A stretch of DNA of 63,995 nucleotides, counting the filler, from Folioceros fuciformis (taxonomy: Eukaryota), in assembly GCA_049999805.1 (NCBI GenBank). It is 5 parts of 4 records of this genome, joined end to end, with 100 filler letters (N's around TTAATTAATTAA, not from the genome) between each part and the next. Parts side by side here need not be neighbours in the genome. Positions count along the whole stretch, not along the records: positions 18,335 to 49,499 come from JBNGIO010004643.1; 4 more parts are not named here. One strand, given 5' to 3'. A program made the translations under genes and the position numbers. Below, piece after piece: positions 18,235 to 62,346 of this stretch (positions are counted from its first letter, which is position 1; every line of letters begins with the position of its first letter). Below the pieces are notes generated by a model. That model made no database searches, was not told the origin of the DNA, and was given only the letters and a program-made list of their open reading frames with translations.

Positions 18235-18334
18235 NNNNNNNNNNNNNNNNNNNNNNNNNNNNNNNNNNNNNNNNNNNNTTAATTAATTAANNNNNNNNNN
18301 NNNNNNNNNNNNNNNNNNNNNNNNNNNNNNNNNN
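18235..18334. other. Assembly gap with artificial six-frame-stop linker TTAATTAATTAA (also at 49500-49599, 56701-56800, 62247-62346); a plain N100 gap lies at 5381-5480
   Basis: The identical N44-TTAATTAATTAA-N44 structure occurs four times. Confidence 0.95.
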
Positions 18335-25921: not shown

Positions 25922-28900
25922 TCACTCCGCCATGGGCTCCCCCTCAACTCCGTGGTCCGTATCCATCGGTTCAGATGTGTGCGACTCCCCTCCATTTGCC
26001 GCTCCTTGCGAGTCATTGGGTTCTGGAGGCCTTTGCTCCGCTGCAGGCGCAGGAGCGGGTCTCGGAGGAGGAGGCCGGGATTTCGTCATTATTGGCTTAC
26101 AAAACCTGTCAACAAATCAGGTGTCATTAGCATCGACCTTCTTTCCAGCCAAGAGTCTTAATAATCTGTATCTGAGAAAAACTTTGAAGGCTGACGGATG
26201 TGGATCAGTCACTGCCCGTACAGAAACCCAACTTATGCCTTAACACGTTAACCCTAGATTAACGAACCCACGTTAACCCTTACCTGTCCAACACTTCTGT
26301 TTTCTTCTTTATCTCAGAAGTCAGCAGTACAGGGTTGGCAGCCCTAGGAAGACTGTCCTGCTGAATTTTCTTGTCCCTCAGCCATTCCTCGGCCTTCAAG
26401 GCCTCAGCCACCACCTTCAACACAACAGAGGATTGGTTAGCTCACTGTGCACACGCATACACTCCGCGAGTAGTGAAACTAACAAACAATTCAGAGAATG
26501 AATAACGTGCTCACCTTCTCCTTATCGGCTGGATCGATGTGATCATACTTGGGTTCTCTCGACAAGGCAGCATCCCTGAAGCTATTGATGCAGTATTGAA
26601 GATCAAGAACGGCTGGACCCCGAAGTTCTTCCTCTCTTTGCCTCTCCTCGATTGGATCCCCAAGCTGTGCAGAAGCTTGCAGTCAGAACGCAGCCAAAAA
26701 AAAGCTTTAGGTTCCACTACTGGGCCTTCGAGCAAATTCAGACATACCTTCTTCAATTCAGCCAACTTTGCAGTGTAGACGCTTTTTGTCTCATCCTCCC
26801 CTTCTTCATATAACCAGTCCTCAGTCTGCTGCAACTTGTTGGATAACTCATCCCTCTCAGAATCTGTGACATATGCTGCAAGCTTTGCAGACAGCTGCAA
26901 TGGCCAAGTCTGGCAGATTAGCCGCACTTCACATCAACCAATACTGGCCATACAAAAAGCATAGTGCCTACGGTACAACCAGACCAGCATTCAGAGAACC
27001 ACAAAGACAGGTACGTAAGGGACTCATTGAAGGGAAACAAGACAAACCTTGTTTCGCATGTCATACACATACGATTCAACTGCGTTTTTCCTATCCTTAG
27101 TCTCTTCCATCACCCGGTCTTGAAGAGCCATTTCATACTCCTTCTCAACTGCTTTCTGGAGCTCAGCCTGGGGTAGCCCTCCAGGGATACTTTCATGCAC
27201 AGGAACTTCTGTGCGCTTAACTTTCTTCTTCTTCACAAGCTCTGGCTGCTCAGCACACAAAGCAATATGGCACGATAGTCAGATTGCCATAAGTCGACTA
27301 CACTGACATAAACATGGCAGCAACGAGATGATACCTTCACATTGTCTGTGTCCATCTTCACAGGCTTGTCAGATGCTGGGACCCCATTGGCCGCCGTATC
27401 CGGAGGGGCCTGAGTAGGATTCTCAGTATCATCCATTTTCGACTCGGGAAACTCAGGCTTCCCCGCATCTTTGTCGGTCTCCATGGGGGAAATGTCTTTA
27501 CCATCTTGCGCATTCTCCTTCTTGACAGGAACGTCCACCTCCTCATCTTCCACCATCTGAAGACAATCAAAAAAGTCATCATTGGCTACATGACAGTCCC
27601 CTACTCTGGATTTTGCATGATCATGATTGCTTTTGAGATGCTTACGGTTGCTGATTCCACATTGAGAATTCCATGGAGATTGAGACGAATCTTGACTTTG
27701 ATCTTGGGCTTTTCTGGCTTCGTTGATGTGAATGGACCAACCTGAAAATCAAACATTCCACAGACATTACAAAAAAACGACCGATGAACGCATTTCACAC
27801 ATTCTGATAGATCCTCAATTGTGCCTTTGTTGATGTGAAAAGAGCAATCTGAAAGTCAAACATTCGCAGACACTATACATACTACCCATGAGGTCTATAT
27901 TTCACACTTCCTAGCAGGCCCTCACAACTCCTTCACAATTGGAAGCACAGACACGAGCCGGCCACAATGTAGCCAAGTGCTCTGTGCTATTTAAGGGACA
28001 ATCCTTGCCAGGCGACATTACACATACAGGAGTCCGACACATCACTATCAACAAACACAAGCAATGGCTGACGAATCTGCACTTACTGTGAAAGTTGCAA
28101 TCTTGGGAGATGTGCCGGCAGGCAATTCCGTAGGGTCAGCATAAAAAGCATCTACCGAAAAGGTCCCAGCTCTGAAAAAGGTGAGCATTTTGGTGCTGGG
28201 AACGGGGTTTCCCTTCACGAACACGACGCTGTTTGGATGAGCTTCTTCCCCTCCTTCGGAGTCTGGAGCTGGTCCTTTCCAAGACAGTGCAATAGGGAAG
28301 GGGAAGGAGTCTTGCACCTGAAAAATAAGTCATCAAACACGGCGTCAGCAGAGAAAGGCTGCGAGACAGCAAGTGCCAAAAGCAGCACATCAGGAGGCGG
28401 AGGATACCTCGAAATCTCGGACTTTGAAAGTTGGGCTAAGCATGGCGCACTGCAGAGTACATCCCCGAGCTATGCACTCACTGGCATTCAATGTCCTGCC
28501 GCCCTCCCTACCGAACACTGCTGTTAAAATTTTCAGAATGGCCGGCACTCGCGAGCCCGACCCTACAACTTCCACAGCGCTGATCTTGTCAGCGGTTAGG
28601 TTGGCATCTTCCAGAGCCTTTTCACATGGGCCACGGACACGCTCCAGTATGGGAGCAGACAAAGTCTCAAACTCCTCTCTCTTGATGGAGGACCTGACGT
28701 CCTTCTCATCCATCAAGCACTCAATATTGAGAGGCGCCTCCGAATTAGCACTGAGAACTTTCTTGAGCTTCTCACAGCCGGCTCTCAACCGGAGACTGGC
28801 TCTGGCGTTAGACACCACATCAATCTTGTACTCCTCCTTGAACTTCTCAGCGAAGTGGGCGAAGAGGACCTCGTCGAAGTCTCTCCCACCCAAGTTCCGG

Positions 28901-29577
28901 TCAAAAGTGTGAGCCAAAATTTTGAGCTGGCCCTTCTTAAACGCAGCAATGCAAACCTGCATGCTGGCATGACCAACATCCACAAACGCAACATTCATGG
29001 GCTCGGAGTCGGACAAGTCCGTCTTGTAGATCCCATAGGCCAGTGCGGTTGCAGTGGTCTCGTGCATGAGACGCAGCGGATGCAAACCCGCAATCTGAGC
29101 TGCATCCAGATACGCCCGTCGCTGCAGCTCGGTGAAATACACGGGAATACCAATGACGCAATCCATGACGGCCATCCCCAGGTTCTTCTCCGCAATGGAC
29201 TTGAGATTGGACAGAACCATCCCGAGCAACTGCGTGGGAGTGAAGCTCTTGTGCTCCCCAAGGTACTGCACGGAGATGGAGATACCACCATCAGAGCCCT
29301 CCGTGACATTAAACGGGAAAAGCTTCAGATCCCGCTGCACATCCGGATCCTGGAATTTCTTGCCAATGAAGCGCTTGATCTGCGAGATGGTGTTCTTCGG
29401 GTTCATGGTAATGGAAGCCGAGGCGGCCGTGCCAAGAAACCGCTGTTTGTCTCCGAACGACACCATGGCCGGGGTCTCCCTCTTGGACTCGTCATTGAGG
29501 ACCACGTCGATGCCCCGCTGCCTGGCGACTCCCACAATGGCGTTCTCATTGCCAACATCCAGGCCGACCACACTCAT
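25922..29577 (-). CDS. Hsp110/SSE-type heat shock 70 kDa protein (HSP70-14/15/16-like), multi-exon
   Basis: MSVVGLDVGNENAIVGVARQRGIDVVLNDESKRETP, LMHETTATALAYGIYK, EKEYEMALQDRVMEETKDRKNAVESYVYDMRNK and EDWLYEEGEDETK; ends ...GEPMAE*. Confidence 0.96.
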
Positions 29578-30054
29578 GTTGGCAGCTCCCTAAGTCCTAA
29601 GCCTCCTCGGATCCTGGCCCCCAGGTGCAGTCTGACCCAGCAATTGAAGACCCCGATGAGTAGCCTCCTACCAGCGGCACCAGGAGAGCGGGTCCCCGAG
29701 CCCTATCTTGCCCTGCTTGGTTGCCTTGCTGTTCTCTGATCTGACTGACGCCACGTACAGAGACGGAGCTGACACACCCCGCAGGGCTGCAGCGGACAAG
29801 ACGTGGGAGAAGAATACCGCCGCGATGCAATCGCGATTACGCCTCCTCACAGCGTGGGCTCATCAAAGGGCTGGCAGCACAACACAGAACAGCACGACGC
29901 GCTGTGAAGCAAGCAAGTGCGATGACGCAAACGGCTGCAGCCGCTTTCGTCTTGGCTCGGTGTCACCTTTGCCCTATTTGCATTCTCCCTCCTCTCTCAT
30001 CGCTGCCAATATAAGTAGGGACATGCAGTTCATGGGGTATTGTATTGCGCGCCT

Positions 30055-37500: not shown

Positions 37501-38078
37501 AGATCAGCAGCACCAGCATCCGAATCTGGCAAGGAGACATCCGTGTAGCGATGCTGATTTTCTGCTACATGGTCCCACAGCCTGGAAAGAAAAAAAAACC
37601 AATCAAACAAAATCAGTGAACATGCCCCAGTAGAGAGCAGCGATCGCCCCGAGCAGAGCAGCTTGCCCTAGAAGGAAGCTACACCACATTACCACGAAAC
37701 AAAAGCTTCGCTTTGATCCCCAAGAAAGGCTTCAAGGTCTGCAGACGCCTGCGCTTGGTGCTTGCCATGTGAAACAAGGACAACGACGTATTCCTGCACC
37801 CAACCAGACACCCAGCATTCGTTATTCACAGCATTCCACAGCCCTATCACATCTCCAACCGAAAGCCAACTTCTGCACTTCCAAGCACTGCCTGCAAAAA
37901 TTAGGTCGGAGGGATGAGAGGGCCGACAAGAATGAGACGGACAACCCACCGCAAGCACGTCGTCCGCATAACTCTGCATCAACTCTGCCAGCTTCGCCTT
38001 CACCACATCCGTGAGCTTCTTCTTCCCATCAGCACCCAGGCTGAGCATAAAGGAGCGCCCCGCCCCCGCAGAATCCAT
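34508..38078 (-). CDS. RNA-binding protein with an N-terminal PWI/Nab2-like helical domain and a C-terminal PABPN-like RRM; multi-exon
   Basis: N-terminal YADDVLA-EYVVVLVSHGK...LEAFLGDQSEAFVSWLWDHV, central SVWDRLG, and RRM VHFATTQETILAHFKACG...SAYVEFVSKDSVEKALALNDSSLHSRFLKV. Confidence 0.8.
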
Positions 38079-40016
38079 AAGTGCGGGTGAGGCGGTGCCG
38101 TCACGGCACCGGGGAATAAGGTTCACCAAGGGAATCACAGGTGCCACTAGATTGCACTCAAGGGAACCATGCAGGCTGCCAAACGCCTGAGGCCATACGA
38201 CGTGGCTGGAATCCACTGGTCACGTCTATATGTATGCGCGGATGACTGTCTCCCAGCAGCAAACTCCAAACAAAGTACCCCGCCTCCGGCTCGTAGAGAG
38301 AACACAGGCTTCAGAGCGCGCAGGGAGAGCAGTCATGCACCACTCCACACTCTTGGGGAGTCACAACACCTGTCCGAAACCATCCTGCCTGGCCTCCACC
38401 ACTCCAGGCTCAGCCACTCGTGAGCACACAGGCAAGGGTTTCTGCCTCCTGTCCTGCCCCCGCCTGCTTGCTGACGATCAAAGCCCGCCGATCTCAAACC
38501 CAAACTACACTCACGATCCTCTTGTTGATGCGACCGAGAAGGATGAACGCCAGACCCGCGAACCAACAGCGCGAACAAATCCTTGAAGAAGACGGATCGT
38601 TAATACTCCCTGCCCTGTCATGGATCCTTTGAATTGTTTTTTTATTCTTCGTCACCACCACACCAAAATAATCCACGACGTCATAAACACATGTACGTAA
38701 ATTAGGGCAAGGGTTAAAGTCTCCATGCTGAATAAGTGGCTAACTAACTAGCATGCTTGACCGCCCCTTTCCTCGGGGGACCCACCACCAAGCTATCCCA
38801 AAACCCCTTTAATCAATTCCGTGTCTCCGTTCCGTTTCGCCGTTGCGAGTGCCAGTTATTCCCGTCGCTGCCACCGGGAGTATAACCGTACCGGGTGAAT
38901 CCGCTAAGACACAGTGTTGCCCCTGAAATCGATCGAAGAGTGGCGCAGTGATTTCTGCTCCTCTGCAGGAACTTCAAATCTGGTTCGAAAACAATAAATT
39001 TACCGGGTCTAAAACTTCAAATCTGCTGCACTTTGATATCCACGACCTCGCACGCATCACCCACCCGTTGAGACACTGACAGTGCCATTTATGGGCCAGT
39101 GCGAAGCTTAACACAAACTGTGGTGTTTCCCAACGGATTTGCGTTACCCTATTGGAATATAATACCTGTAAGCGATAACATATTCTAGATAAATACCAAA
39201 ATAAAATAAAAAATGACCATCAGTGTGGAATCCCATCAGTTCATCTCACCAAAGCAAACCACTTGATACACTACTATGTAGCCAAACAAACTAGATGTGA
39301 ATAATTTCTTCTTCTTACATCATATGTAATTGAGTTCTACAAGTCTAAAAATTTATTAAAAACGAAATGGGAGAGCCAACTACCTAGAAAATGGGAAGGA
39401 AGAACCTCATGAAGACCAAAAGCCAAAAGGAGGACTAGCCCCTCGTAGATCAATTTGATAAGTAAACCCTAAACTCATATATAGTGATGTAAAATGACAA
39501 AGAGCCTACCTACCACTAATGTTTATGAAGTTGACAAACCTGCATTTGTTGTTGTTCTATAGACCACATTGGCCAATTCCCTTTGGAGAGCGTTGTAAAG
39601 CAAGGGATATGCTTAAGAGAGGAAAATAGGGCAATGGTTATATTTGGAGAGCGGTGTAGAGCAATGTGTATGATTTGCTAGACTTTTTCTACTGCCATGC
39701 TACCAACTCCTCACTCTCTTCGTAGTACATCAAGCTTTTCCCTTGGGGCTACCTCAAGATCCATCAAGGTGAGCAAACATTTCTTGAACGTATCCATTGT
39801 TGAGATATATGACGCAACAAAGAGATATTCATCAAGCAAGTTACACTTTCAATTTGACTTGATACATTTGTTCACCACCACTCATGCATTCATTATCTTT
39901 CACTCATTGAATCAAAATAGTGCATACATTGTCAAAGTACAAATAAGATAGTTAAGCATTGCTCATGTATCACAAGTTCTCATACTTACCAACTATTACA
40001 TTATGTAATTGAGTGT

Positions 40017-40077
40017 CTTAACCGAGGCTTCTGTATCTACTAGATAGAGAAGCCTTGGTTAAGCAATTTATTCCTAG
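40017..40077 (+). mobile_element. Putative Helitron 3' terminus (hairpin + CTAG|T)
   Basis: A 23-bp stem with 2 mismatches (cttaaccgaggcttctgtatcta-c-tagatagagaagccttggttaag, 40017-40063), a 10-nt spacer, then CTAG at 40074-40077 followed by T. Confidence 0.55.
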
Positions 40078-40601
40078 TAGTAATAAATGTGTGCACATTG
40101 TTGGAACCTTGGAAAATGACAACGGCTAACAAGCCCTAAACACAACACCAGCACCTTGATCCATACCCAATCCAAAAACCCAAACTTAACGAATAGATAA
40201 ACGAGGTTCAATCTCATAGACTAAATAAACCTTAGAAGTAACCATAATTGTTTCTTGTAATTGTAAAATAGTGTAAGGGGTTTACCCTTAGGGTCCCAAT
40301 CATTTATCTTCCTCTTGAGGGGTGGATGGGTTTTCCATCTTGTTTTTCTAAAATAAATGAAAGTCGTACTAAATAGCTCTTATATGAGGTAGTACTAAAT
40401 AGCTCATATAGCCCTAAACCAAGTTGGATTGTGTGTGTGACTGATCGGATTGAACTGTCGTGCGGCTGATGCAACCATCGCTCGTGCCTAACTTCTTTGA
40501 GTCGTCGTATTTGAGTCTTTGCACGCAGGCGAGGGATGATGTGCTGTCGAAGGTGGAGCAATATGACTCTGCTAGCTCAGAGGCCATGGTGGGGTTGGGG
40601 G

Positions 40602-40836
40602 CTCCCTCCTCATTGTGCATACCAAGGCTACTAGTCATCTTTTCACTCTTTGGTGGCTCCCTTCACACGAGATCAACGAAGCGAGCAAAGCTTTGTTTAT
40701 CCCTTCTCACTTGATAGGAATGGGTGATCACAACTCATAATACATGATGCCTCCCCTTGAGTGCTTCCTCCTTGTCGTGCACACCAAGGGTACTAGTCAT
40801 CTTTCTACTCTTTGGTGGCTCCCTTCACAGGAGATC
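40602..40836. repeat. Diverged ~73-bp direct repeat inside the TE island
   Basis: ...gtgca(t/c)accaagg(c/g)tactagtcatcttt..actctttggtggctcccttcaca(c/g)gagatc at ~40602-40674 and ~40764-40836. Confidence 0.75.
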
Positions 40837-41001
40837 GGCCAAGCCCCCCTTAATTTGCTGCCTAACTTTCAAGCAAGCCAGATTAACAAAGATCTGCACA
40901 AACTTCATCACACAACACTATCCTCAATCTACATTGTCCATCAAATAATCTTCCCTTCATAATGTATCAATTGACCCTAAACATTGGATAAAACCATTAC
41001 A

Positions 41002-44000
41002 TGTTGGGAATTGCTTCCAATGATGGTTCCAGACAAAAAATGTGCCCCCTTGTCATTGCATTTGTCACACAACAACATACAATGATCTATTAAGAAATAG
41101 ATTTAGACTTATTTATACATTACATATTTAGGTTAAATACTAGCCTTAGTTTTAGCTCTAATTTATGAACCAGTAGGCAGTTGAAACTGTTATCAATGCC
41201 AACAAATGTAACCCAGTCAGTTTCTCAAAATATACACAGGTTTGTGCTACACGTCTGTTGCGCGCGATCAGCCTCAATTTCCTCACTACAATCATGTCTA
41301 GAAATTCAACATGGTATCAAAGCCTCTAGGCTTGATATGTGCGTAGCTATCTAGCCCATCTACTCTGTTAATTCGGCTAAACATGAATGGTTGGTTACCT
41401 CTAATCCTATCTATTCGGCAAGATGCCTCGCATGCACACTTATAGGCAATCTTGTCTAGAGTTCACAAGTAGAGGGAAGTGTCTATGCCCTGAGTCAAGC
41501 TTCAAGCATCTCTATTTCAAGAAGAATGCAACTTACATAAAGAAGGAAGAAAGGGAGTGGTTCCTCATTACCTTCCTGAATCTTCAAGCATCTACACCAA
41601 ACAACTTTCCGCTAGTAGCAAAATCATCCAAACGCTCATGCCTTCCAAGGATTCCACATGCTCACAAGTTCAAGCCTCACCTCAAGAATTTTATGGAACA
41701 CCAAGTTATCCTTGATTCAATCCTGAACATGAAAGTCATATGCTAGAGTTTGCAACTCGCGTTGATGGACTTCAATCCCGACTGGAACTCCTTGAACGAC
41801 ATCACTCCTCAGACCTGTCAACAATAGCCAGACACGAGAGCCTAATTCAGGACTTGAGAGAGCATCTTGCTCTCCATCCCTCCTCACACTAATTGTACAA
41901 AGGTCTCACCAGGCATCTTGTTGTAGGGATATTAAAGCTCAATGTGCTTAGACTAATGTGTTTAGTCTAAGATTAGTGTCTAGTTAACTATCATTCGTTT
42001 AGATTAGCTTAAGCTAATATGTAGGAAGCTTCTTGCGCAACTTCCTTTGTGCTTCTTGTGAAGCCTCCTAAAGAGCTATTCTAGAGGGTATAAATACCCC
42101 CTTGAGCTCCCTTGCAATGTGAGACATTTGTGAAAGTGTGACCGCTCTTTCTCCTCTCCTCCTTGCTTCCTCCTCTCCTCCTTCACCATGTGGCTCCTCT
42201 AGCGATCCTTCAACTGGTATCATAGCGCAGGTGTGGAGCAAGATGGTGTTGGTTCTAGGTGATGGCTCGAGGTGATCATGTCGGCAGGTGCTGCGGAGAG
42301 AGGACCGTGAGGAAGGGCATCTAGGAGGAGCACGGGGCTCCGAGAGCTCGTACACGGTGCAGGCGCCTGGACGCAGGGAGAGCAGGGTGCCTGGGGCGCC
42401 AGAGCTCTAGCCCGCAAAGTGCAGGCACAACAAGCCCGCGAGGGCGCCAAGAGGTGGATGCCCCAGCCCCAAGGCATAGCTAGGCCCCGACCTAGACGCG
42501 GGCGGCCCGGGCCGTCAGACCCCGTACCATACATTTATTACTAGCCAGAATGGCCCTATGCGGACTGCACATGTTGCTGTTGCTGCTAGAAGTGTAAGCA
42601 CCATCACCATTGAAGAGGTAATCGGTGCCTTGTACCAGGAAGAGCAGAGCAGAATGTTTTCGATGGGAGCTCCTAAAAGCAGAACAGAGAAGGCATTAGC
42701 AACAAATCATAGGACATTCAAAGGAAAAGGCAAGGCAGGAGGTAAACCTGTGCAAACTTTTGATTTCTCTGGCCCATCTAAACCACCTGGAAATTTCAAC
42801 TGGTGCGGCATAGCCGGTCATTAGGCTTGAGAATGCTAGAAGAAGAAGGCAGGAGAACCTCGAAGAATTCCTAAGAATACCGCAACTATTGTGATTAAGG
42901 AGAAGAACATATGTGACACCAAACCAGCGGTGAAGATACTTACAATCTACCTCGCTAGATCCATAAGTGATGAGGATGGCTAGTATTTAGACTCTGGTGC
43001 CATGTCACACATCTCCAAAAACAAGGATTAGTTCTATATGCTAAAAGCTGATCACACAGCTGAAAGAGTTCTATTGGAAGATGAAAGGAACCATTCCAAT
43101 CTCCCTATTCTAGGCTATGGGACGTGCAAGTTCACACTTCACGATGGATCCATTCTTACCCTGGATGGCGTTCTCTGTGTACCCTCCATGGCCAAGAATT
43201 TGTTTTCTCTTAGCAAGCTAATGCAATTGCGCATATATGACATGAAAGCCAGTGAGGACATCTGTCTTTTCTACAAAAGGTCAGATCCATCCATGTTGGT
43301 GTTCAAAGGTACCCTTGATCATGATCTCTATAGACTTGATATCTGTACCCTTCGTCATAAGGCAAGCTTAGTCTCCAAACATTCCCAACGCCTTACTGTC
43401 ATGTGGCATGCCAGGCTTGGTCACGTTAATAAATGAAAACTGGTAGACATGTCTCTTCAAGAGTGTTATTTAGAACCCTTACCTCAAGTCTTTAAGGATC
43501 TACCATCTTGTGAAGCCTGCATTGTTGCAAAATAGAAGGCTCATCCTTTTCCAGTTGCAGCATCCTACAGAGCCACGAATGTGTTAGAACTAGTGCATGC
43601 AGACATATCTAGAAAAATACAAATCCCATCTCTGGGAGGTTCCATATATTACCTATGCATCATAGATGATTACTCTCGCTACACTTGGACATATCCAATG
43701 CAACTGAAGAGTGACACCTTCGAGCTTTTTCGAGAATGGCTGCTGATGGCTGAAAAACAGACATGACATTTCGTTAAATATATCCAGACTGACAATGGAA
43801 CAAAATTCCTGAACTATGCTTTTGATACATTCCTCCAAGAGAGAGGGATTCAACGTCAACTCACAGTCCCTTGTACACCACAACAGAACGGAGTGGCAAA
43901 GCGGAAAAATCAAGCTCTATTGTCTATGACTAGGAGTATGCTGTTATGGGCAAACTTACCTCAGGAGTATTGGGCTGAAGCTATTGTTGTTGCTACATAC

Positions 44001-45262
44001 ATCCTGAATCGACTTTTCACTAGCTCCGTTCCTTCCAAGACCCCATATGAAGCATTCTGGAAATGAAAACCTAGTTTGCTGCACTTACGAGTATTTGGTT
44101 CTCATGCTTTTGCTCTCATACCAGAGGAGAAGAGAAAGAAACTAGATCCGAGAGCCCAAGCACTTGTCTTCGTTGGCTATAGTGAACAGTCCAAAGCATA
44201 CAAACTGTATGATCCTGAGAACAGGTGAGTAGTGTTAGCACGTACTGTTACATTTCTTGAGGTTGATAAACCAATAGGGTTTTTTGAAGCTAAGGGAGTA
44301 ACTTTACCTGAGACAGGGGAAAATACTTTTCATTTTCCAATGGACGAATCTCAGGATGAGGAAGATGTACAGGTTGGTCAGCCAGTGACCCAACCACCTC
44401 CTCATCTTGGTCAGCCAGTTGACCCAATACTTCCTCCTTCTGGATTAGTACCTGATCAACCACAAGCTATCATTCTTGATCCAAATTAAGCTGATCCACC
44501 CATAAACCCAGCTGCCGACGAAGCTGAGGGAGCTTTGAATGACGAGATATATGTACCTGAAGGAGATGATGAAGACCATGCTCCAGTTGTTCCTGATGAG
44601 GATCCAGATCCCCCTTTGCGAAGGTCAACAAGGACAATGGAAAGAGCCAAGATATGAGTCAATGACTTCAAGACAACCTATACAGACATTTGCCATTCTG
44701 CATCTAGTACTATACATCTGGAACCAAAATCCCTCACATAAGCATTCTCAGGGTCTTAAAGGGACAAATGGAAATTTGCTGTTGACGAAGAGTATAATTC
44801 TCTAGTGAAGAACAAAACTTGGACATTGGTAGACTTACCTCCTGGCCAAAAACCTATCTCCTGTAAGTGGGTATTCAAACTAAAGCTTAATGCGAAGGGA
44901 GAGATAGCAAGGTATAAGGCCAGATTGGTCACAAGGGGATTCACTCAGGTAGAAGGACTAGATTATCAAGAGACATTCTCACTTGTTGTGAGAGCACAAT
45001 CCATAAGAATGATTTTTGCCCTCGCAGCTGAATTCGACCTACACCTATAACATATGGATGTCTGCACGGCATTTTTATATGGAGCGCTGAATGAGGATCT
45101 CTATATGATACAGCCTGAAGGTTATGAGAATCCTAAACACCCTAAGAAAGAACTGAAGCTACTAAAGACCATTTATGGTCTAAATCAGAGTGGTCGAGTA
45201 TGGTATCTCACCATTCATGAGTACCTTATAAGCAGTTCCTTTGTCTAGAGTTCTGCAGGTAG
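41002..45262 (+). mobile_element. Decayed Ty1/copia retrotransposon (host element): putative 5' LTR ~41002-41311, PBS 41312-41324, gag-PR-INT-RT with many stops; 3' part missing
   Basis: TG...CA LTR followed by tggtatcaaagcc (tRNA-iMet PBS). Coding remnants: zinc knuckle WCGIAGH, protease YLDSGAMSH, WHARLGHVN, integrase LELVHADI/IIDDYSRYTW/QQNGVAKRKN, RT NKTWTLVDLPPGQKPISCKWVFKLK...YKARLV...MDVCTAFLYG, in copia order. Confidence 0.92.
41922..42533 (+). mobile_element. Nested truncated copia fragment: LTR (41922-42212) + PBS (42215-42226) + GC-rich leader
   Basis: LTR starting TGTAGGG is clearly homologous to the LTR at 45263. It is followed by PBS tggtatcatagc and interrupts the host gag region. 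Confidence 0.85.
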
Positions 45263-47905
45263 TGTAGGGTTAATAATGCCCAATGTGCTTAGACTAATGT
45301 GTTTAGTCTAAGATTAGTGTCTAGTTAAGTACCATTAGTTTAGATTAGCTTAAGCTAATCTGTAGGAAGCTTCTTGCGTAGCTTGATGTGCTTCTTATGA
45401 AGCTTCCTAGAGAGTTCTTCTAGAGGGTATAAATACCCCCTTGAGCTCCCTTGCTATAGAGACTCATTGTGAGAGTGCGACCTCTCTTTTCTCCTCTCCT
45501 CTCCTTCACCATGGAGCTCCTGTAGCGATCCTACAAGTGGTATCAGAGCCAGGTTTGGAGCAAGTTGGTGATGGCCAGGATTGCTGCAGGCAAGGTGCAC
45601 AAGTCGGCTTTGGAGTCAGCACGCTACTGGGTGCAAGGGATCTCCAACCGAGCGGGAGTAGAGCAAGAGTCGGAGACCCGGCCACGAGCGCAAAACGAGC
45701 GCAGTGCACCCAGGTGCCTGCCATCCCGCAGGGTGTGCCCTAGGAGTGGGGCGCAGGAGGCGAGGGCACCCGGGCACGGGTGCCCAAGGTGCCGCAGGGC
45801 GTAGAGGCGCCTAGGCAAAGTGGGCGCTAGGCCGCAGTCGCCGGCGGGCCGTTCGAGCTGCCAGCCCAGGCCCAGCGGGGCCGTTAGCCCCGCGGGCAGG
45901 GGGGCTTTAGGCCCCCAACGGGGGCTCCAGCCCCGTAGGTGGGGCGTCCAACCCGCGCAGGGGCGCAGGCCCCGGTCAAGGGCTCCACCAGGTGCGGTGG
46001 GCGCCAGGTGAGCGTCACCAGCCCGCGGCCCCGGCTTGGGGGGCCAGGACGCGGCCAGGGGCGCTGCCTGACGCGGGACGCCCAATCGCATTGGGCTAGC
46101 GGGCAACATAGACAAGGCCAGCGGGCCAGTCGAGCCAACGGAAGTCAAGGAGCAAGTAACACAAGCAACGCGGGTGCTAACGACGCGAGTGCGCGCTAGT
46201 TGGGATCTTGGCCGCGAGGCAGCGAGATCTCAATCGGAGGATTTAGGCCTGTCGAGTCGGCTTGTGGACAACCGATTCAAAACGAGAGTGAGGGTAATAG
46301 AATCTACATTTCATTTCGATCGCTTTCTAACTAGCCTTTTGGTTGATTTGCATCGATTTTGAAACATGATGTCCTCAGAAAACGTCATGTTCAAGATCGA
46401 GAACTTAGATGGTACTAACTTCCCGTTCTAGAAAGAACAAGTGTATAATGTTCTAGTACAGAAGAAGCTGATCAAGCCCACCAAGTTGCTAGGATTGAAA
46501 CCTGTTAGCATGACTCAAGATGAGTGGCGGGATCTAGATGAGCTTGCTAGGTCTACCATCATGCTAACATTGTCGAAGTCAGTCTACTTCAACGTGAAAG
46601 ACAAGACCACAAGTTTCGAGCTATGGCATAAGTTGTGTGGCCTGTACGAGAAGCAAAGTGTGTCTTTTCAGGTGTACTGGATGAAACAGGTAGTGGACTT
46701 GAAGATGAAGTTAGGGACGAGGATGTCCGATCATCTGAATGAGTTCAATACCATTTTCAGCCAGCTCTCATCTCAAGGTATCTCGTTCCTAGATTCCGTA
46801 AGAGCTATGTTTCTGTTGGTCAAATTACTAGAGAGCTAGGACACTTTTCGTACAGCTCTGAGTAATTCCGCTCCTGCCAGTGGTCTTATTGTTGTAAATG
46901 TAGAAGGTAGCCTGTTAACAGAGGAGGTGAACATGAAGAGTATGGAACCCTCAAAAGGTTTCAATGCCCTCATGGTGAGAGGAAGGTCCACTTCAATGGG
47001 GAAGTACAAGGAGCGAAAACGTTCCCGTAGTAAATCTCGTAGTCCTAACAATGTTGAGTGTTACCGTTGTCACAAGAAGGGTCACATCAGAAGGGACTGC
47101 GAGAAGTTCAAGAAGGACAAAGGAAAGCAAAAGAAGCAGAGCGACAACAAGGAAAGTCCGAGTGTCAAGCATGATGAGGTGAATTATGTTGATGATGGAG
47201 ATGTTCTTACCTCTTCTTCCTTCGATTCTGCATAGCTGACAGCCGTGGAGAGTCACTTATTCTCTAATTGGATAATTGACTCTAGAGCATCTTTCCATGT
47301 TACTCCGCATCGGGAGTGGTTTAGCACTTATGATGCTACTAGAAAAGATGTGTTCGGCTTGGAAATAACTATGTGTGCGAGATTGCAGGCGTTGGTGATG
47401 TGCAGCTGAAGTTCGACAATGGATCTTCATTCACACTGAAAGATGTTCCGAAGTTGACAAAAAGCATGATTAGCGCAGGGCAGTTGGATGACGCTGGCTA
47501 CCATTGTTGGTTTGGAGATCGTTCTTGGAAGATCTCCAAAGGTTCTCTTATGTTAGCTCGTGGATCGAAGTGTGGCACTTTGTACTCACTTCAGGTAACC
47601 ACTGTCAAGGATCATGTGATTTGTGTAACGGAACAGCCAAGTGTTTCCTTGTGGCATAGCCGGTTAGGACATATGTCTCAAAAAGGAATGAAGATCTTAT
47701 CTCGTTTTGGTTACGTCCCTACTTTTGACTTCTCCGATTTCTCCGTGTGTGAGCACTGTTTGTATGAGAAACAAACGAAGTCACCACATAGAGCAAGAGG
47801 TAAACACAAAAGTAAACCTCTTGAATTGGTTCATAGTGACGTTTGTGGACCTATGCCCACTGTATCGTTAGGCGGTGCATCCTATTTTGTCACTTTCATT
47901 GATGA
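45263..47905 (+). mobile_element. Second Ty1/copia element (Tnt1/Tork-like): 5' LTR 45263-45535, PBS 45538-45550, GC-rich leader, gag-PR-INT N-terminus; truncated in integrase
   Basis: TGTAGG...CCTACA LTR with TATA box and PBS tggtatcagagcc. Coding remnants FKIENLDGTNF, DELARSTIMLTLS, CYRCHKKGHIRRDC, WIIDS, LWHSRLGHMSQKGM and LELVHSDVCGP...YFVTFID, after which copia similarity stops abruptly. Confidence 0.93.
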
Positions 47906-48301
47906 AACACGGTCTACGCCTAACGGTCGTATTCCATGAAGCCCGTTTGGTGCACTTTTGAATTTACACCATCCTGGTCACATATCCACATTTAAGCTAT
48001 TTTTTTAAAAACATATTGTTTGGACATGTCGTGGACACCACACATCATAAAAAATGTCTAAACCAACTCAATCCAATTGAGGCATAAAGTAGACGACCGA
48101 TTAAATTTTGCCTAAAAACCGAATCCTCCTTCGAGTGCACCGGTCTACCGGCGCACTAAATAGCGTGGTTCACTAAAAAGAACCTGGCTAAGTGCCTGCT
48201 AAGAATAAAAAACCTTTACCAATCACTTTTAAATAAAGGCATATTGTACCACAAACTGCAAGTATTTTCAAATCATTCAAGTCATGTACGTCTTGGATGG
48301 C

Positions 48302-49499
48302 CTAAGAATCGACAACTATCTTTACATCCTTCAAGCGCTGGCCCTTTGTGTCGCCGAAGTCGTCTCCTTCCACCTCAAGAACCGAGAAATGAGGATCGTC
48401 CACTGTCTGAGGCGGAAGCGTGCCATTCTCATCCCAAACGGTCATAGCATACAGATCTTCCGCTGGTCTGTCATCTGAGTGAGTAATAACTTCACCTTTC
48501 TTCCCCAGCAAACTGTACACCTGCATCTGCCGATCCACGCTACCGTCGGCACAAACTTCTTTAGCCCAAAACTTTGTGGGCCCATGAGAGAATGGGTCTG
48601 TGCTAATTTCTTCATCACCGTCTGGCAAAGAACCAAGGCCATTCACTATCTGCATCATGTATGTCGTGCATCGTATATCGATGTCCATCGCGACAACATG
48701 CCTCCCCCTTTGAATAGCAGCCTGAAGGAACGATCCGGATCTTGCGCAGGCATCCACTACCCAGTCTCCTTCAACCAAAAACATGTTCACAAGCATTCCC
48801 ATTAACCCCAACAGCTTCTGATATGGGGAGACGACCATCGAATTGGCCGAGTGAAAAAGATGTTTTTTCACGACAGCCCCATACCTTATCACTCTCGGCA
48901 GAAGAGATCCCTGATTCGCAAATAAGGCTGCTTTGGTGGTATGAGCTGCCGAGTGGACTGCACTTCCAACTGTCAGGTACTCCACAGTCTCTACTGCCCC
49001 TGCATTCGGAGGAATGTTGGTCTTTTCCCAAACCAATGTCTGTATGGTGTCTTTCTTGCACCATGGCCTAAGTTCCTCTCTCGCCTATGAGATGAGGTCA
49101 ACCCCATGCATGAGGACCACTCGATAAACATTGCTACTTGTGCATTCAGAAAACCCCTTGATCATGTCTTCAAGGTCCTCGCTAGTCAACTGCCTGTCAT
49201 AATCATGTTGTTGGAGACCACGAGGCAAATCAGCGAACAATAGGGTATAAGGTCTCTTTACCAGAAATCCGCTCATCTCCAGAACGCTTCTTTGTATCAC
49301 TTGATATTTCGTTTTTTGGTTGCTGTTGGGGACCCTGAACTCTGACAAACCAGCATCCATATCGGTGTCCGCTAGTTTCTGCTTCTCCTCTTCTAACCGT
49401 TTCCAGTTCCTTGCTGAGTACACGTAATCCTGGAATGGCTTGGGCAACGATTCCAGGTCGTTTATATCTGTAGGTTTCTACCAACAAATATCTTGGTCA
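48302..49499 (-). pseudogene. Decayed beta-class N4-cytosine/N6-adenine DNA methyltransferase-like reading frame (N6_N4_Mtase-like); 5' end lost in the gap
   Basis: The ORFs 49085-49447 and 48302-49036 are in the same frame, separated by one TAG (49085-87); another TAG lies at 49478-80. Motifs in beta-class order: YTLLFADLPRG (DPPY-like motif IV), LVWEKTN, SPYQKLLGLMGMLVNMF (QKP-like motif X) and EGDWVVDACARSGSFLQAAIQRGRHVVAMDID (motif I/II). Confidence 0.75.
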
Positions 49500-50016
49500 N
49501 NNNNNNNNNNNNNNNNNNNNNNNNNNNNNNNNNNNNNNNNNNNTTAATTAATTAANNNNNNNNNNNNNNNNNNNNNNNNNNNNNNNNNNNNNNNNNNNNG
49601 TATGATGATCCGAAGGAGGAGAAGCTGGAGTGGGACAAGTTAGGGGCTAGTACGGTTGTGGCGGATGGTGAAGTATTGGCGGAGGCGGGTAAGGACAGGC
49701 CGAAGAAGAGACGGGAGGAAAGAACAGGAGATGGGAGCCGTGCGTGATTTGAGAGGAATGGCTTAACCGTAAGCTGCGTTGAGCAGTGTCAAGTAGATGT
49801 GATGTCAGATCGGGAACCAGCGGCTTTCATTTTCTGGCGGCACCGGCCGCATGAGGCCAGCGGACGCTAATGTCGGACAGGGACCATGCAGCCAAATGGG
49901 GTGGAGTCATGGATGGAGACTGGTAGAAGATGTGGTATGACTAGCTCAAGCTTTGGGTACCAATGCTTAGTGTGGAGATGATGAAGTGGTCTGGTTGAGC
50001 TCTCTGCGCGGAGGGG

Positions 50017-51654
50017 ATGGGGTGTGTTGGTTGCGGCTGGGCTTGCTTGATTCTGCTGCTTGTCTGCAGCGTCTGCTGGTTCTGTGTGGAGCCCAATAAC
50101 TCGGCTGTTGCTTTGCTGGCACTACGTTCGTCATGTACGTGGGAGGATGTGAGTTTATTTCATGTGACAGACAAGAGTTCGAATTTGCAGCTTTTGGGCA
50201 ACTCCGCAGATGCACACATCCTCCTTGCGTTCAAGAAAGCAATCCTGGAGGACCCTGTAGGAGTGTTGTCGAGCTGGGAGATGGGGAACTCTTCTTCGTT
50301 TTCGCCTTGCAGCTGGTTCGGGATAGGGTGCAATCGCTTTGATCGAGTGGTTTCAGTTCGTCTCTCTGGTTATCAGTTGAGAGGATCGTTATTGCCGATG
50401 ATTGGAAAGCTCTCATTTCTTTCCTCTTTGGATTTGTCCTGCAATGAGTTGAATGGCACCCTCCCTCTCGAGTTGGGTGATGCAATGTCTTTGGTTTTCA
50501 TCAACCTAACACATAACCTCCTCTCTGGACCCATCCCCTCTTCTCTGGGAAAGTTGACCCTGCTTTCTGGACTGGATGTAAGCTACAACTGGCTGTCAGG
50601 GCCGATTCCTGAAGCGCTCTCAGCATGCACCGGCCTTGTATCTCTGCTTGTCGACCATAATCAACTTGTTGGTGCTGTCCCCTCTGCTCTGGGCAACTTG
50701 GACCAGCTGGTGGAGCTTGACTTGTCGTCGAACTACATCAATGGATTATTACCTGCGGCTTTGGGAAATCTGTCCAGCCTCCAGTACCTCTCGGCCTCAC
50801 AAACTCATATCGCAGGTACCATTCCCCCTAGTCTGGGAAACTGCTCCCAGCTTACACACCTGGACTTGGCTGAAACTCAGTTAACAGGAAGGATTCCTCT
50901 CGAGCTGGGAAGGCTACAGAAACTTCGATTCCTTGATCTGTATAATAACCTGCTTCTGGGACCCATACCAAGTGACCTGGCCAACTGCACTTCCCTGGAG
51001 TACCTGGATGTAAGTAGCAACTTACTCAGAGGGAAGTTGCCTAAAACAATGGGACGTCTTCAACGCTTGTCTTGCTTCAAGGCCAGCAGAAACAGGATCT
51101 CGGGCTCTATCCCAGCGGAGTATGGCAAGCTCGCCAGCCTGAAGGTGCTTGACCTCAGCCACAACAGGTACCCCTCGACATCAGCATTTTCTAGGCAATG
51201 CATGTCAGCTACCTGCAGCCACTGTATTAACTCCGATGTGAAACTCTGTGACCACAGATTTGAGGGACCCATCCCTTCCTCCTTGGGCAGCCTGCACAAC
51301 TTGCAGCACATGAACCTGGCCCACAATTTTCTCATAGGATCGGTTCCTACATCTTTTGTTGCCCTAGGTAACCTCAGCTTCTTGTCTTTGGGAAGCAACT
51401 GCCTCTCAGGACGTCTTCCACACGGGCTGCTGGGATTTGGCACGAAGTTACAAGTACTGGACGTGGGGGAAAATCTTCTGTCTAATCAACCCCCTCTCTT
51501 CATCGCCAACTGCACTCGACTTGTCGTCCCCAGCCACCGACAAATGTCAAGGGCGAGCAGTTGGAAATTCCTCTACACAAATAGAGCACTTTTCAATTCT
51601 CTACTGTGTTTGCGATCGCTCGTACCTGAAATGCTAGACCATTTGACACGATGA
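50017..51654 (+). CDS. Extracellular leucine-rich-repeat protein (RLP/PGIP-like), no transmembrane or kinase domain visible; probable short in-frame introns at ~50149-50190 and ~51169-51258
   Basis: Hydrophobic signal-like N-terminus, LRRNT (DAHILLAFKKAI..DPVGVLSSW...PCSWFGIGC), and about 15 plant-type LxxLDLSxNxLxGxIP repeats. Confidence 0.88.
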   Translation: MGCVGCGWACLILLLVCSVCWFCVEPNNSAVALLALRSSCTWEDVSLFHVTDKSSNLQLLGNSADAHILLAFKKAILEDPVGVLSSWEMGNSSSFSPCSWFGIGCNRFDRVVSVRLSGYQLRGSLLPMIGKLSFLSSLDLSCNELNGTLPLELGDAMSLVFINLTHNLLSGPIPSSLGKLTLLSGLDVSYNWLSGPIPEALSACTGLVSLLVDHNQLVGAVPSALGNLDQLVELDLSSNYINGLLPAALGNLSSLQYLSASQTHIAGTIPPSLGNCSQLTHLDLAETQLTGRIPLELGRLQKLRFLDLYNNLLLGPIPSDLANCTSLEYLDVSSNLLRGKLPKTMGRLQRLSCFKASRNRISGSIPAEYGKLASLKVLDLSHNRYPSTSAFSRQCMSATCSHCINSDVKLCDHRFEGPIPSSLGSLHNLQHMNLAHNFLIGSVPTSFVALGNLSFLSLGSNCLSGRLPHGLLGFGTKLQVLDVGENLLSNQPPLFIANCTRLVVPSHRQMSRASSWKFLYTNRALFNSLLCLRSLVPEMLDHLTR

Positions 51655-56568: not shown

Positions 56569-57198
56569 TGCACGAAAACTCTGGCTACGAAGCCCCCGTC
56601 CCCCACATTCGCACCGGGCTCCCTCCCCGCGATGGAATCCTGCCCTTTCTTCACGCTCCAGACTCGATTCTCACCGTCCCTGCTCCTGCAGCGACAGCCA
56701 NNNNNNNNNNNNNNNNNNNNNNNNNNNNNNNNNNNNNNNNNNNNTTAATTAATTAANNNNNNNNNNNNNNNNNNNNNNNNNNNNNNNNNNNNNNNNNNNN
56801 TGGCAACCTGGTGCCACCCACGCACCCTGCGCGGACAGGTGGCGGTTTGTGCAAGCGGCACCGCGGGCGCTCTCCCTCGCGAGCAGACTCGTGCTGACTC
56901 CCTCCTCTCTTGAAAGACGTTCGCGGCCCGGAACAGCCAGGCGCTACGTCCCCGAACCCCATTCTTGCACCTCCGGCTCTCTGGTTTCCCTCCTTGGACT
57001 AGATCCGCGCGGTGGGCGGCGGGCGGCGGTGGCGCGGGGTGAGAGCGGCCTTGGACGATCGCAATACTGAACCAGGCGGAGGAGCCTTTGTTGTTGTAGC
57101 TGCTAGCTGCTGTAACGGTTTGTTGGTGTCGTGTCGTTGCATTTGTATCAAAGTGTGTGAGTTGGTGCTGAGGAGAGGAGCACAGGAGAACAAATGAC

Positions 57199-60269: not shown

Positions 60270-62346
60270 AGGAGGCCCAAGCAGTTAGGAACGCTGGCAA
60301 CTTTGTGGTCTCCACGTAAATGTAACCAGCAACAACTGGAAATCAGACAACTTAGCAATTAGTCTATGGCAACAGATAATCTATCAAGGCATTTGATAGG
60401 TGCACCCCCCACACAGCAGATATGTGCACCCACGCTGTTGTTGAAATAAGAACTCGGCTCTGCGTGCAGATCAGTATCGGGTTGGGTAACATTCAGCTAG
60501 ATGCGGGAGGATTCTATGGGCGCGCCGGCCTCCCTTTCGAGGTCTCCATGGCAAGCCTTCATCTCTCTCAAGTATCTCACTGAACCCCATAGATCTACGC
60601 AGGTACATTAACTCCATAGTTTGTCACAACTGGTTAAAATATTCTAACTCCCACGACAACCTTCACCCAGTTGTTGTTGTGGCCAGAACGCAACAGCTTG
60701 ATCCCCAGATTCCCACTCATGGTAGGCCCATGGGGAAGGGTATCAGGAAGTGCGAAGAACTTTGGACTGAAATGATGAAGCTCCAAGAATTTCTCTGAAA
60801 CCGGCTGGGCCTCGAGCTGTCCAGCCAGGAGAGTTTTGAGAGGACACCGAGGGCTCTCACAGAGCTTCGAGTAGACGGATGGAACCTGCGACCGATTGCC
60901 CCTGCCCCACACACACACAGTCCCAAGGTGAGAAACGCAAATCGCAGCCACTCGAGGCGAAATGCTTCCCGAACCTGCCACTGCTCACGGGGTCAAGCTT
61001 CACACAACAAAAGCTACAATACTGCCCGCCCGGGGCCCGGCGTGGCCTAGGACGCAGACACTGGACCAAATTGCACACAAGTGCGCAAACACAGGGCCGG
61101 AAACTCATACGCAGGCCCATGTCGGACAGCAGGGTCAACCAACCGTCGCGCAATTGAATCTCAGCCAAGTTAGGCACATGTCGGCCGGGCCGGCCGACGC
61201 ACACACAGTCCTCAAACACGCTCTAAGCAAGGAAGCAAGCAAAGCTACAAGCCAGCCACAAGCACTAGCCAGCGCAGCCACGCCCAGCGAGGAAACACGT
61301 GCAAGCTGAGGTTCCGAGACGGCTAAGCTCACGACCAAGCGGGCGCCGCTAGCGGCTGCAGCAATTGCATGCTCAAGTCGAGTAAGGAGGCGCAAGGGAG
61401 GCTGACACAGCCCTGCGTTGGAACAAAGGAGCGGGAGAAGACAAAACCTTCCCCCGCGCCCACTCCCGGCAGCAAGCTCCTGCCGCTCGCCGTTGCTCAA
61501 AATCGGAGGCCATAATAATGGACAAAGAGCCGCGCCGGCTGAAAATTGCGGGGGCGCCAGGAGCAGCCTGGAGGCTCGCACTGGAGCAAGCTCTCCTCCG
61601 GTCAGCCAATGCGCCTTGCTCTGCGGTCTCCAGGACGATAAGAGGAGAAGGCGAAGAAGGAGAAGGCGAAGAAGGAGAAGGAAGGAGGGAAGAAAAACCG
61701 CCATAGATCTGCCTTCGGTTTGCAACAGAATTCTAGGTCCGGGGACGTTCCAGGCCTCCACCTGCCAACCGCCTATTGCGGCCAACCTTAATTATATCTT
61801 GTTGAAGTCAGCCAAACGTGGTGTCCGGCTTTGCGCCCGTTCCGTTAACTCCTTTATTAGTTCTTTGTGCCACTTGCGTATGTATATTTGCATTTATATA
61901 TGGCTTGGGGTAAATCTTTCTCTGTCTATGTCTATATATGTATGTTCCCCTCCCAGACCATACTACTCCATTAACATGAGTTTTCGCTTCCTCTTCGACT
62001 TGGACGTCGATTTTTACGTGAATGGACGTTGTGAGACCTAGCCTAGCGCGTTAAGGTTACTTTGACTGCGTCGTGGAGTTAGCATGTGAGCCAGGACGGA
62101 AAACCGGGCTCGCCTAGTAGACCTAGCGCTGTCGACACCACCCGACTGCAGCGGGCCTCCTGCTGGCGCTGCCATAGCGGCTGCTCCGTAGGGCTGGAGG
62201 GCAAGCTGGGAGACTGGTGTCTGTGACGCTGGAGTGGGGGACAGGANNNNNNNNNNNNNNNNNNNNNNNNNNNNNNNNNNNNNNNNNNNNTTAATTAATT
62301 AANNNNNNNNNNNNNNNNNNNNNNNNNNNNNNNNNNNNNNNNNNNN

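Follow-up and report, generated by a model that had tools for sequence, protein, structure and literature searches.

An inactivated copy of a repeated, probably mobile element with a beta-class DNA amino-methyltransferase gene in Folioceros fuciformis

The DNA analysed here, which we call the window, is a stretch of 63,995 nucleotides from Folioceros fuciformis (NCBI GenBank assembly GCA_049999805.1). We are fairly confident that its positions 47906-49499 are the 3' portion of one copy, now inactivated, of an element that is moderately repeated and probably mobile and that carries a gene for a beta-class DNA amino-methyltransferase. The frame belongs to the beta-class PF01555-type DNA amino-methyltransferases by motif order, profile and fold, the copy in the window is a pseudogene, and contigs from public sequencing runs of the same species show many diverged copies that share a defined end at position 47906.

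To our knowledge, the methylation of plant nuclear DNA is understood almost entirely through enzymes that make 5-methylcytosine. Prokaryote-type amino-methyltransferases in eukaryotes are few and were found recently, namely rotifer N4CMT, Marchantia DN4MT1 and the DAM domains of retrotransposons. Through the window, a further PF01555 family becomes accessible. Its members occur in a charophyte, a liverwort, a fern and Ginkgo; the family is multi-copy and probably mobile and has an unusual catalytic pocket, with the base-stacking residue replaced in one clade. The interest lies in this family and not in the dead copy of the window: a plant-wide PF01555 lineage of predicted enzymes.

The methyltransferase frame

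Translation of the minus strand from 48302 to 49498 gives a single frame of 399 codons with no frameshift and no insertion or deletion, interrupted by two TAG codons ahead of the terminal one. The frame forms the end of the contig that occupies positions 18335-49499, and its N-terminal continuation is not assembled. The features of the frame and its tail are as follows.

48302-49498, minus strand: pseudogene frame of a beta-class DNA amino-methyltransferase-like protein, 399 codons, N-terminal part lost at the contig end
49478-49480, minus strand: in-frame TAG, codon 7
49085-49087, minus strand: in-frame TAG, codon 138, aligning to a variable column of the relatives
48302-48304, minus strand: terminal TAG, codon 399
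49217-49231, minus strand: motif IV position, DLPRG (residues 90-94); D-x-P-Y-G in the wider family, the Arg being clade-specific
49016-49030, minus strand: WEKTN block, where the family alignment has an invariant W157 and a nearly invariant K159
48812-48826, minus strand: motif X-like PYQKL (YQKL at residues 226-229); relatives have YQKP, aligning with HPTQKP of CcrM; the L codon is CTG
48731-48754, minus strand: motif I, binding S-adenosylmethionine (SAM), DACARSGS (residues 249-256); relatives have D-x-x-S/A-G-S/T-G; the R codon is AGA
48677-48688, minus strand: MDID
48608-48628, minus strand: LPDGDEE, a short motif kept after the methyltransferase domain; relatives have LPDEFQE or LPDEDQE
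47906-48301, minus strand: non-coding tail, reaching from the stop codon to where the repeat ends, all bins covered by diverged contigs

The preliminary description of this DNA had proposed a minus-strand frame of about 400 codons broken only by two TAG stops, with the motifs in the beta-class order; the frame is confirmed, and the motif positions agree within a few bases. In the window protein, motif IV is followed by a target-recognition domain (TRD), with motif I after it, which is the linear order of the beta class (PMC7544214). The protein tail beyond LPDGDEE is variable and predicted to be disordered. By eye, the minus-strand non-coding tail also contains a GC-rich palindrome at 48110-48135, with about 9-10 paired bases around CCGGT..ACCGG, some 230 bases before the end of the repeat.

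Homology and structure prediction

The main homology search was an exhaustive HMMER comparison of the window protein with 1.84 billion representative proteins, which yielded 61 relatives at E<=1e-3, 18 at E<=1e-10 and 2 at E<=1e-30. The representatives are numbered here from P0002, the best library match, which aligns to residues 10-313 with E=1.3e-37, a value that excludes a chance frame. Against PHROGs, the window protein matches DNA methyltransferase families (E=3.4e-6 and 5.7e-6). The gathering score of PF01555 is passed by nine of ten relatives in one scan and by seven of eight in another, and the Ginkgo relative P0006 matches phrog_67 over the whole domain (E=1.5e-27). With a profile built from eight relatives, CcrM is found first (4.1e-9), followed by MboIIA, TTHA0409, M1.HpyAVI, RsrI and rotifer N4CMT (9.2e-7). 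The alignment of this profile to CcrM pairs 'aDiPYGfn' of the family with 'ADPPYNLQ', 'nPYQKP' with 'HPTQKP', and the SAM loop with 'GDVILDPFFGVGTT'.

Other sequence searches remained empty or nearly so. The window protein has no match in NCBIfam, and its relatives score 17-46 bits against bacterial NCBIfam families, none reaching the cut-offs of 244-830. A word-index protein search gave no match for the window protein, one for the family alignment and three for P0002, including P0002 itself. A metagenome scan with P0018 returned no relative.

The AlphaFold2 model of the window protein, built from 19 aligned sequences, has a mean predicted local distance difference test (pLDDT) score of 70.1, with 126 residues at 90 or above and a core mostly above 90. 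Residues 306-399 score below 50, and these C-terminal 94 residues are predicted to be disordered. In the Foldseek search of the PDB, the first 39 listed matches are all DNA amino-methyltransferases, METTL3 appearing from rank 40. The best fold match is CcrM (E=1.6e-13), followed by M.BceJIV, MboIIA, TTHA0409, RsrI, N4CMT, M1.HpyAVI, PvuII and a type III Mod subunit, so that the two enzymes suggested beforehand for this comparison, RsrI and PvuII, are both among the beta-class matches. The template modelling (TM) score by target reaches 0.75 among the matches, and the sequence identity within the fold alignments is 12-17%. Top fold matches in the viral structure library are giant-virus and phage N6A/N4C methyltransferases, including those of Megaviridae and Pandoravirus.

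The family assignment of the window protein rests on its relatives, on the profile and on the fold, and these bear out the prokaryotic-type amino-methyltransferase put forward in the preliminary description: both profile and structure give significant matches to DNA amino-methyltransferases, and no TRM11/THUMP-type RNA enzyme came out as the best match.

Decay of the window copy and the motif IV trait

Motif counts were taken from representatives P0002-P0062 aligned to the profile, without P0009, an Acinetobacter protein with 16 matched stretches, and P0059 with 7, both of which we judged to be low-complexity tail matches. The Pro of YQKP is present in 42 of the 49 representatives that cover the site, and the first Gly of motif I in 48 of 52. 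The window copy has Leu at the former position and Arg at the latter, a residue it shares only with P0014, and its A-R-S-G departs from the F-x-G-x-G SAM loop of motif I that the family carries. Both codons, CTG for Leu and AGA for Arg, are a single transition away from the Pro and Gly codons implied by the relatives, as had been supposed. The two stops and the two substitutions make the window copy a pseudogene; it is dead and without function of its own. The absence of insertions and deletions over 399 codons, together with the transition-rich differences among the copies described below, is consistent with decay through point mutations.

A maximum-likelihood tree was computed from 32 domain sequences, with P0070, P0065, P0066, P0067 and P0064 dropped as near-duplicates or short. 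In it, the window copy groups with P0002, P0003, P0004, P0005 and P0010 with a support of 99/97. Its terminal branch has a length of 1.21, compared to 0.30-0.91 for the rest of the clade. The window copy can therefore be seen as the decayed form of a once-intact gene, in line with the preliminary description, which had also considered intact relatives possible; these exist as open frames with intact motifs, several of them intact open reading frames (ORFs) of 340-450 residues.

Motif IV of the family deviates from the usual pattern in a different way. All 31 representatives covering the site have Asp at position 1 and Pro at position 3, and position 4 is Tyr in 21, Arg in 6, His in 2, Phe in 1 and Ser in 1. 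Among amino-methyltransferases, Asp at position 1 is more usual in adenine enzymes and Ser in N4-cytosine enzymes. The specificities of PF01555 have switched repeatedly (PMC8885841), and the sequence does not reveal which base is the target. DLPRG is found in 6 of the 31 representatives (P0002, P0003, P0004, P0005, P0015 and P0049), which are among the nearest relatives of the window copy, and as all six of the nearest representatives that cover motif IV have it, DLPRG is a trait of the clade and not a sign of decay. The last residue of motif IV is described to stack on the target base and the first to abstract a proton, and partner proteins with an eroded motif IV, such as MTA9, are known (PMC7544214). 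Judged by these residues, the family has a non-canonical catalytic pocket, in which the DLPRG clade lacks this aromatic residue entirely, and the missing aromatic argues against ordinary catalysis in that clade.

Repeat copies and the end at position 47906

From four public runs labelled with the species of the window, Logan contigs were aligned to positions 47300-49499 at a likeness of at least 80%. In each of the three DNA runs all 30 bins of this region are covered. The summed word depth lies in the thousands over the copia retrotransposon part to the left of the segment and at about 40-660 over the methyltransferase segment, and a near-identical contig of 166 bases, with one difference, has a depth of 7.7. 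Individual sites show 13 (X1) and 17 (X2) different contigs whose letter is not that of the window. Contigs on the methyltransferase segment differ from the window by up to about 19%, with identities from below 90% to above 99%, and some skip 68-427 bases internally. The differences between copies are rich in transitions, with C>T at 54-63 and G>A at 56-114 places per run. No RNA dataset is listed as containing the segment. The fourth run, guessed to be RNA, provides two contigs, both on the copia part only, and has no bearing on expression.

The left boundary of the segment is sharp. Leftward of 47906, 12 and 15 contigs run into sequences unlike each other, with an agreement of 0.44 and 0.43; this is about the level of unrelated flanks, from which we conclude that the repeat truly ends at 47906. 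Rightward of 47905, five copia contigs share one sequence with an agreement of 0.97. The segment had been described as starting exactly where a copia integrase breaks off (about 47905), and the contigs agree with this on both sides. We conclude that the window copy sits inside, or is joined to, the copia integrase. Within the last 130 bases or so, the summed depth of the bin 47966-48039 is 395-711, about 4-6 times the 80-110 of the next bin (48040-48187); this higher depth near the end and the internal skips fit shorter derivatives sharing the end.

The segment is part of a repeated, probably mobile element, to which we assign no class. The proposal of a mobile element carrying a methyltransferase holds insofar as the segment is repeated and one of its ends is defined, lying inside a copia. 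We could link it to no transposase, recombinase or reverse transcriptase. Neither a reverse transcriptase nor a recombinase lies in the frame or adjoins it on the same strand, no transposition gene was found on the strand of the frame within the contig, and the adjacent copia, itself cut, runs on the opposite strand. By eye, the terminal letters of the segment match no transposon superfamily signature known to us.

Relatives in plants

Thirty representatives were looked up, of which 12 have names and the rest come from Logan, ENA or JGI assemblies. Eleven of the named ones are plant nuclear gene models, forming three clusters from Chara braunii, three from Riccia sorocarpa, four from Adiantum nelumboides (plus a member of 720 residues) and one from Ginkgo biloba. 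They are annotated as hypothetical or as 'DNA methylase N-4/N-6 domain-containing' and lie on contigs of 0.8-52 Mb. The twelfth is an Acinetobacter repeat protein, a spurious hit that matches the low-complexity tail only. No angiosperm is among the named representatives of the protein library, plant genomes themselves not having been searched directly.

In several genomes the family falls into multiple clusters that share less than 50% identity, and gene models there are truncated, partial or chimeric. The Chara braunii protein P0017 (GBG86584.1, 1825 aa) contains the N-terminal domain and the methyltransferase twice over, both units complete, with a long low-complexity spacer rich in Ala, Pro and Glu between them, an arrangement that suggests tandem copies merged by annotation. 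One Adiantum model starts with a piece that we read by eye as a retrotransposon integrase.

The long forms (670 residues in Ginkgo, 699 in Chara and 789 in a JGI protein) are composed of a conserved N-terminal domain with a GGGHxxEAR motif, a middle region and the methyltransferase. From this motif, read by eye, the N-terminal domain might be ParB-like, which we treat as a lead only. Fusions of the ParB fold to PF01555 are described as enriched in phages and prophages (bioRxiv 10.1101/2025.10.10.680097).

The gene family extends from stoneworts to Ginkgo, and, as the preliminary description had supposed, we found no printed description of a streptophyte repeat family with a PF01555 or ParB-like methyltransferase in the part of the literature searched, which did not include supplements such as the sequence lists of PMC8885841 or the species tables of the DAM preprint (bioRxiv 10.64898/2026.05.21.726589).

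Comparison with known systems

The closest structural parallels are the bacterial and phage beta-class PF01555 enzymes (CcrM, M.RsrI, M.MboIIA, M1.HpyAVI, M.BceJIV and M.PvuII), which have the same motif order, an HPTQKP corresponding to YQKP, the G-x-G SAM loop and the same fold. In contrast to them, the plant family has D-(L/I/V/A/F)-P-(Y/R/H/F) at motif IV, never D/S-P-P-Y, and is a repeat of plant nuclear genomes. The long forms also resemble the fusions of a ParB-CTPase fold with an N6_N4 methyltransferase in phages and prophages (bioRxiv 10.1101/2025.10.10.680097) in having an N-terminal domain before the methyltransferase, but here this domain is a candidate ParB member only, and the window copy lacks that part since the contig ends.

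Among eukaryotic proteins, bdelloid N4CMT is likewise a beta-class PF01555 enzyme of prokaryotic type and matches the model structurally (PDB ID 8s9o, E=5.2e-10, TM score by target 0.69). Its gene belongs to the host, contains introns and is present in one copy, and the protein carries a chromodomain at its C-terminus, whereas the plant family is multi-copy with an acidic tail that is predicted to be disordered, and the Pfam scans of the window protein and of the scanned relatives show no chromodomain. N4CMT is stated to be without eukaryotic homologues (PMC8885841).

The preliminary description had also placed the frame beside Marchantia MpDN4MT1 and the methyltransferases of DIRS-type elements, and neither comparison holds at the level of the family. 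MpDN4MT1a/b, from a seed-free plant, is likewise beta-class and of prokaryotic type, and its described motif is TSPPY (bioRxiv 10.1101/2021.02.12.428880); S-P-P-Y is found in 0 of 31 representatives of the plant family and not in the window. On this motif as described, we rejected an MpDN4MT1 orthologue. The DAM domains of DIRS and long terminal repeat (LTR) elements resemble the plant family in being adenine-methyltransferase-like, derived from prokaryotes and multiplied by eukaryotic repeats, with many orphan or decayed copies. They have an Asn-Pro-Pro triplet and are accompanied by a reverse transcriptase or tyrosine recombinase, whereas the plant family has D-x-P and belongs to PF01555, and DAM-LTRs are reported as absent from Streptophyta (bioRxiv 10.64898/2026.05.21.726589). 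In the Pfam scans of the window protein and of the scanned relatives, no Dam-named family was matched. A DIRS DAM domain was therefore rejected as well, Asn-Pro-Pro against D-x-P marking a different family.

The DLPRG clade can be compared to non-catalytic partners (PMC7544214) such as METTL14 and ciliate MTA9, which has NALW at this position. The clade likewise keeps the fold and the SAM loop and has lost the aromatic residue of motif IV, and beta-class enzymes work as dimers; the likeness is an analogy only.

Proposed function and alternative explanations

With its motif IV, target-recognition stretch, YQKP and G-x-G SAM loop, the gene of the element would encode a SAM-dependent beta-class methyltransferase. 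By analogy with such enzymes, intact members of the D-x-P-Y type would be expected to take up SAM and to flip out a base, whose exocyclic amino group would then be methylated, giving N6-methyladenine (6mA) or N4-methylcytosine (4mC). The window copy is incapable of this because of its two premature stops and its substitutions at the two best-conserved positions. Catalysis may be lost or changed in the DLPRG clade, whose members could be the non-catalytic partner in a beta-class dimer. If the ParB-like N-terminal domain is real, it recalls the phage fusions of ParB and methyltransferase. A wider picture, which we offer tentatively and hold to be rather unlikely in its entirety, is an undescribed mobile or virus-derived family ranging from Chara to Ginkgo, possibly combining a ParB-like domain with a D-x-P-Y methyltransferase, whose intact members would write 6mA or 4mC on plant nuclear DNA, for example on their own copies, to escape or steer silencing, with the DLPRG clade as a derived partner that is non-catalytic or re-targeted. 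Should intact members be active, reports of 6mA and 4mC in such plants would gain a candidate enzyme, and the element would be a new case of a transposon carrying its own DNA-modifying enzyme. If the family does write these marks, it would represent a third independent route, next to those of MpDN4MT1 and the DIRS-type DAM domains, for the entry of amino-methylation enzymes into eukaryotic genomes.

A number of observations weigh against the reading as a mobile methyltransferase element or against parts of it. The three DNA runs derive from one sample, so that all evidence for copies comes from a single sample, and the summed depth is not a copy number and is used here only in the sense of 'many'. 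No listed contig bridges 47905/47906 independently of the assembly. Neither the protein nor the DNA occurs a second time in the window, a search of 38000-49499 for an inverted repeat of the 47906 end found none, only one end of the element is seen, and no transposase, recombinase, reverse transcriptase or capsid gene is linked to it; we infer that it is mobile from copy number and the shared end only. For the enzyme, the window protein itself scores 18.4 bits against PF01555, below the gathering threshold of 26.7, and its best Pfam match by E-value is FtsJ (E=2.8e-4, 21.3 bits against a cut-off of 24.1). Position 2 of motif IV is Pro in 0 of 31 representatives, and no family member has the canonical (D/N/S)-P-P-(Y/F/W); given this, catalytic competence seems uncertain even for intact members. 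The N-terminal domain matches Pfam DUF6551 weakly (E=0.019). In the Atlas language-model feature scores of P0018 residues 95-330, phage ParB_N/DUF6551 clusters reach 0.93/0.91, and fungal DUF3723 clusters are higher at 0.95. A PDB profile search with this domain returned no ParB, only weak rows of antibody light chains that are noise.

DUF3723 is an accessory gene family of the Starship giant transposons. The DUF3723 and ParB scores are, as an observation in their own right, a lead to a possible ParB-like module shared by cargo-carrying elements of fungi and plants.

The segment could instead be what is left of an endogenous virus, either a large DNA virus or a polinton-like one, with the methyltransferase as cargo, its copies being repeated integrations or later duplications. 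We consider this unlikely, although it is the strongest of the competing explanations. The Megaviridae and Pandoravirus enzymes are among the top viral fold matches, but the fold is matched just as well by enzymes of phages and bacteria. Adenine methyltransferases of giant viruses and adintoviruses have been described as becoming endogenous in eukaryotes (10.64898/2026.05.21.726589). Neither the 31-kb contig nor the whole window has a viral hallmark gene. The IMG/VR search with P0006 found four loci at 22-36% identity over 76-204 residues, one of them a weak match (36% over 76 residues) on a giant-virus metagenome-assembled contig; these are generic methyltransferases only, and P0016 has no relative in IMG/VR. 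The short tail and the sharp shared end about 400 bases past the stop codon fit a compact repeat better. A little less probable still is that the frame is a pseudogene of a non-mobile host family of streptophytes, multiplied by segmental duplication and possibly with a host role, as MpDN4MT1 has in sperm. Swimming sperm is a feature of the lineages of all the named relatives (Chara, Riccia, Adiantum and Ginkgo), and several members of the family are the intact ORFs mentioned above. However, one sample contains many diverged copies, some internally deleted, with a common end and unlike flanks, the window copy lies inside a copia, and single genomes have several clusters below 50% identity with partial or chimeric models, among them the integrase-like fusion of Adiantum, seen by eye, and the tandem units of Chara.

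A relic of an RNA methyltransferase (FtsJ, RsmD, TRM11 or similar) is very improbable, as is a chance frame, which the E-value of the best match excludes. The FtsJ match is joined by the sole PDB sequence match of the window protein, a putative rRNA methylase (E=0.11), and by one JGI member of a distant cluster that its source names RsmD. These sequence matches, like that to PF01555 a match to the SAM loop, extend over 35-50 residues only and stay below the cut-offs, whereas the whole domain of 250 residues aligns with DNA amino-methyltransferases by profile and by fold and has motif IV before motif I, and on these grounds the RNA methyltransferase was rejected. The least credible explanation is that contaminating DNA of a bacterium or phage was mis-joined to a plant copia in the assembly. 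The domain is of prokaryotic type, and the segment is located at a contig end next to an artificial linker. Among the 1.84 billion proteins, however, no bacterial one matches at E<=1e-3 except the Acinetobacter repeat protein, the named relatives are plant nuclear gene models on long contigs, the many diverged copies show transition-rich differences, and the GC content and the observed/expected CpG ratio resemble those of the rest of the contig. Contamination was therefore rejected; the relatives, the copies and the base composition, examined for it in the light of the preliminary description, show no sign of it. We favour the reading as a copy of a repeated, probably mobile methyltransferase element over these alternatives.

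Surroundings of the frame

Four identical linkers of 44 N, TTAATTAATTAA and 44 N are located at 18235-18334, 49500-49599, 56701-56800 and 62247-62346, so that the window is a chain of separate contigs and gene neighbourhoods across the linkers are not real. Two further runs of N are at 4881-4890 and 5381-5480. What had been taken as a gap at 49500 turned out to be one of these linkers, and the adjacency of the frame to the leucine-rich repeat (LRR) gene from 49999 onward is artificial.

On the contig of the frame, two decayed copia-type elements stand in tandem on the plus strand at 41922-47905 and form the transposon island around it; their LTR-like direct repeats at 41922-42226 and 45263-45549 are 85-92% alike. 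The open frame of the copia Pol_BBD and gag_pre-integrase domains extends over 47343-47936 on the plus strand, and the copia reading in it ends at 47905/47906.

49500-49599, no strand: artificial contig linker (44 N, TTAATTAATTAA, 44 N)
41922-45260 (approximate right limit), plus strand: copia A, with LTR 41922-42226, pre-integrase 43032-43433, rve 43767-44063 and RVT_2 44760-45047; cut within RVT_2 at about 45260
45263-47905, plus strand: copia B, with LTR 45263-45549, gag 46432-46836 and pre-integrase 47343-47905; cut in the pre-integrase at 47905
47343-47905, plus strand: copia Pol_BBD and gag_pre-integrase frame, cut at 47905 (PF13976 E=1.7e-19; PF22936 E=7.1e-10)

Besides copia, the plant ORFs nearby in the window encode pentatricopeptide repeat (PPR), HSP70 and LRR proteins. 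The PPR protein ORF (13596-16406, plus strand, 937 residues, with an E motif) and the LRR receptor-like ORF with LRRNT_2 (49999-51651, plus strand) are ordinary plant genes on other contigs. An intronless ORF of 399 residues at 28393-29589 on the minus strand matches HSP70 (PF00012) with E=2e-133. The plus-strand ORF at 28600-29736, which overlaps it, matches 'NAD-GH', which we suspect to be an antisense artefact of HSP70 genes.

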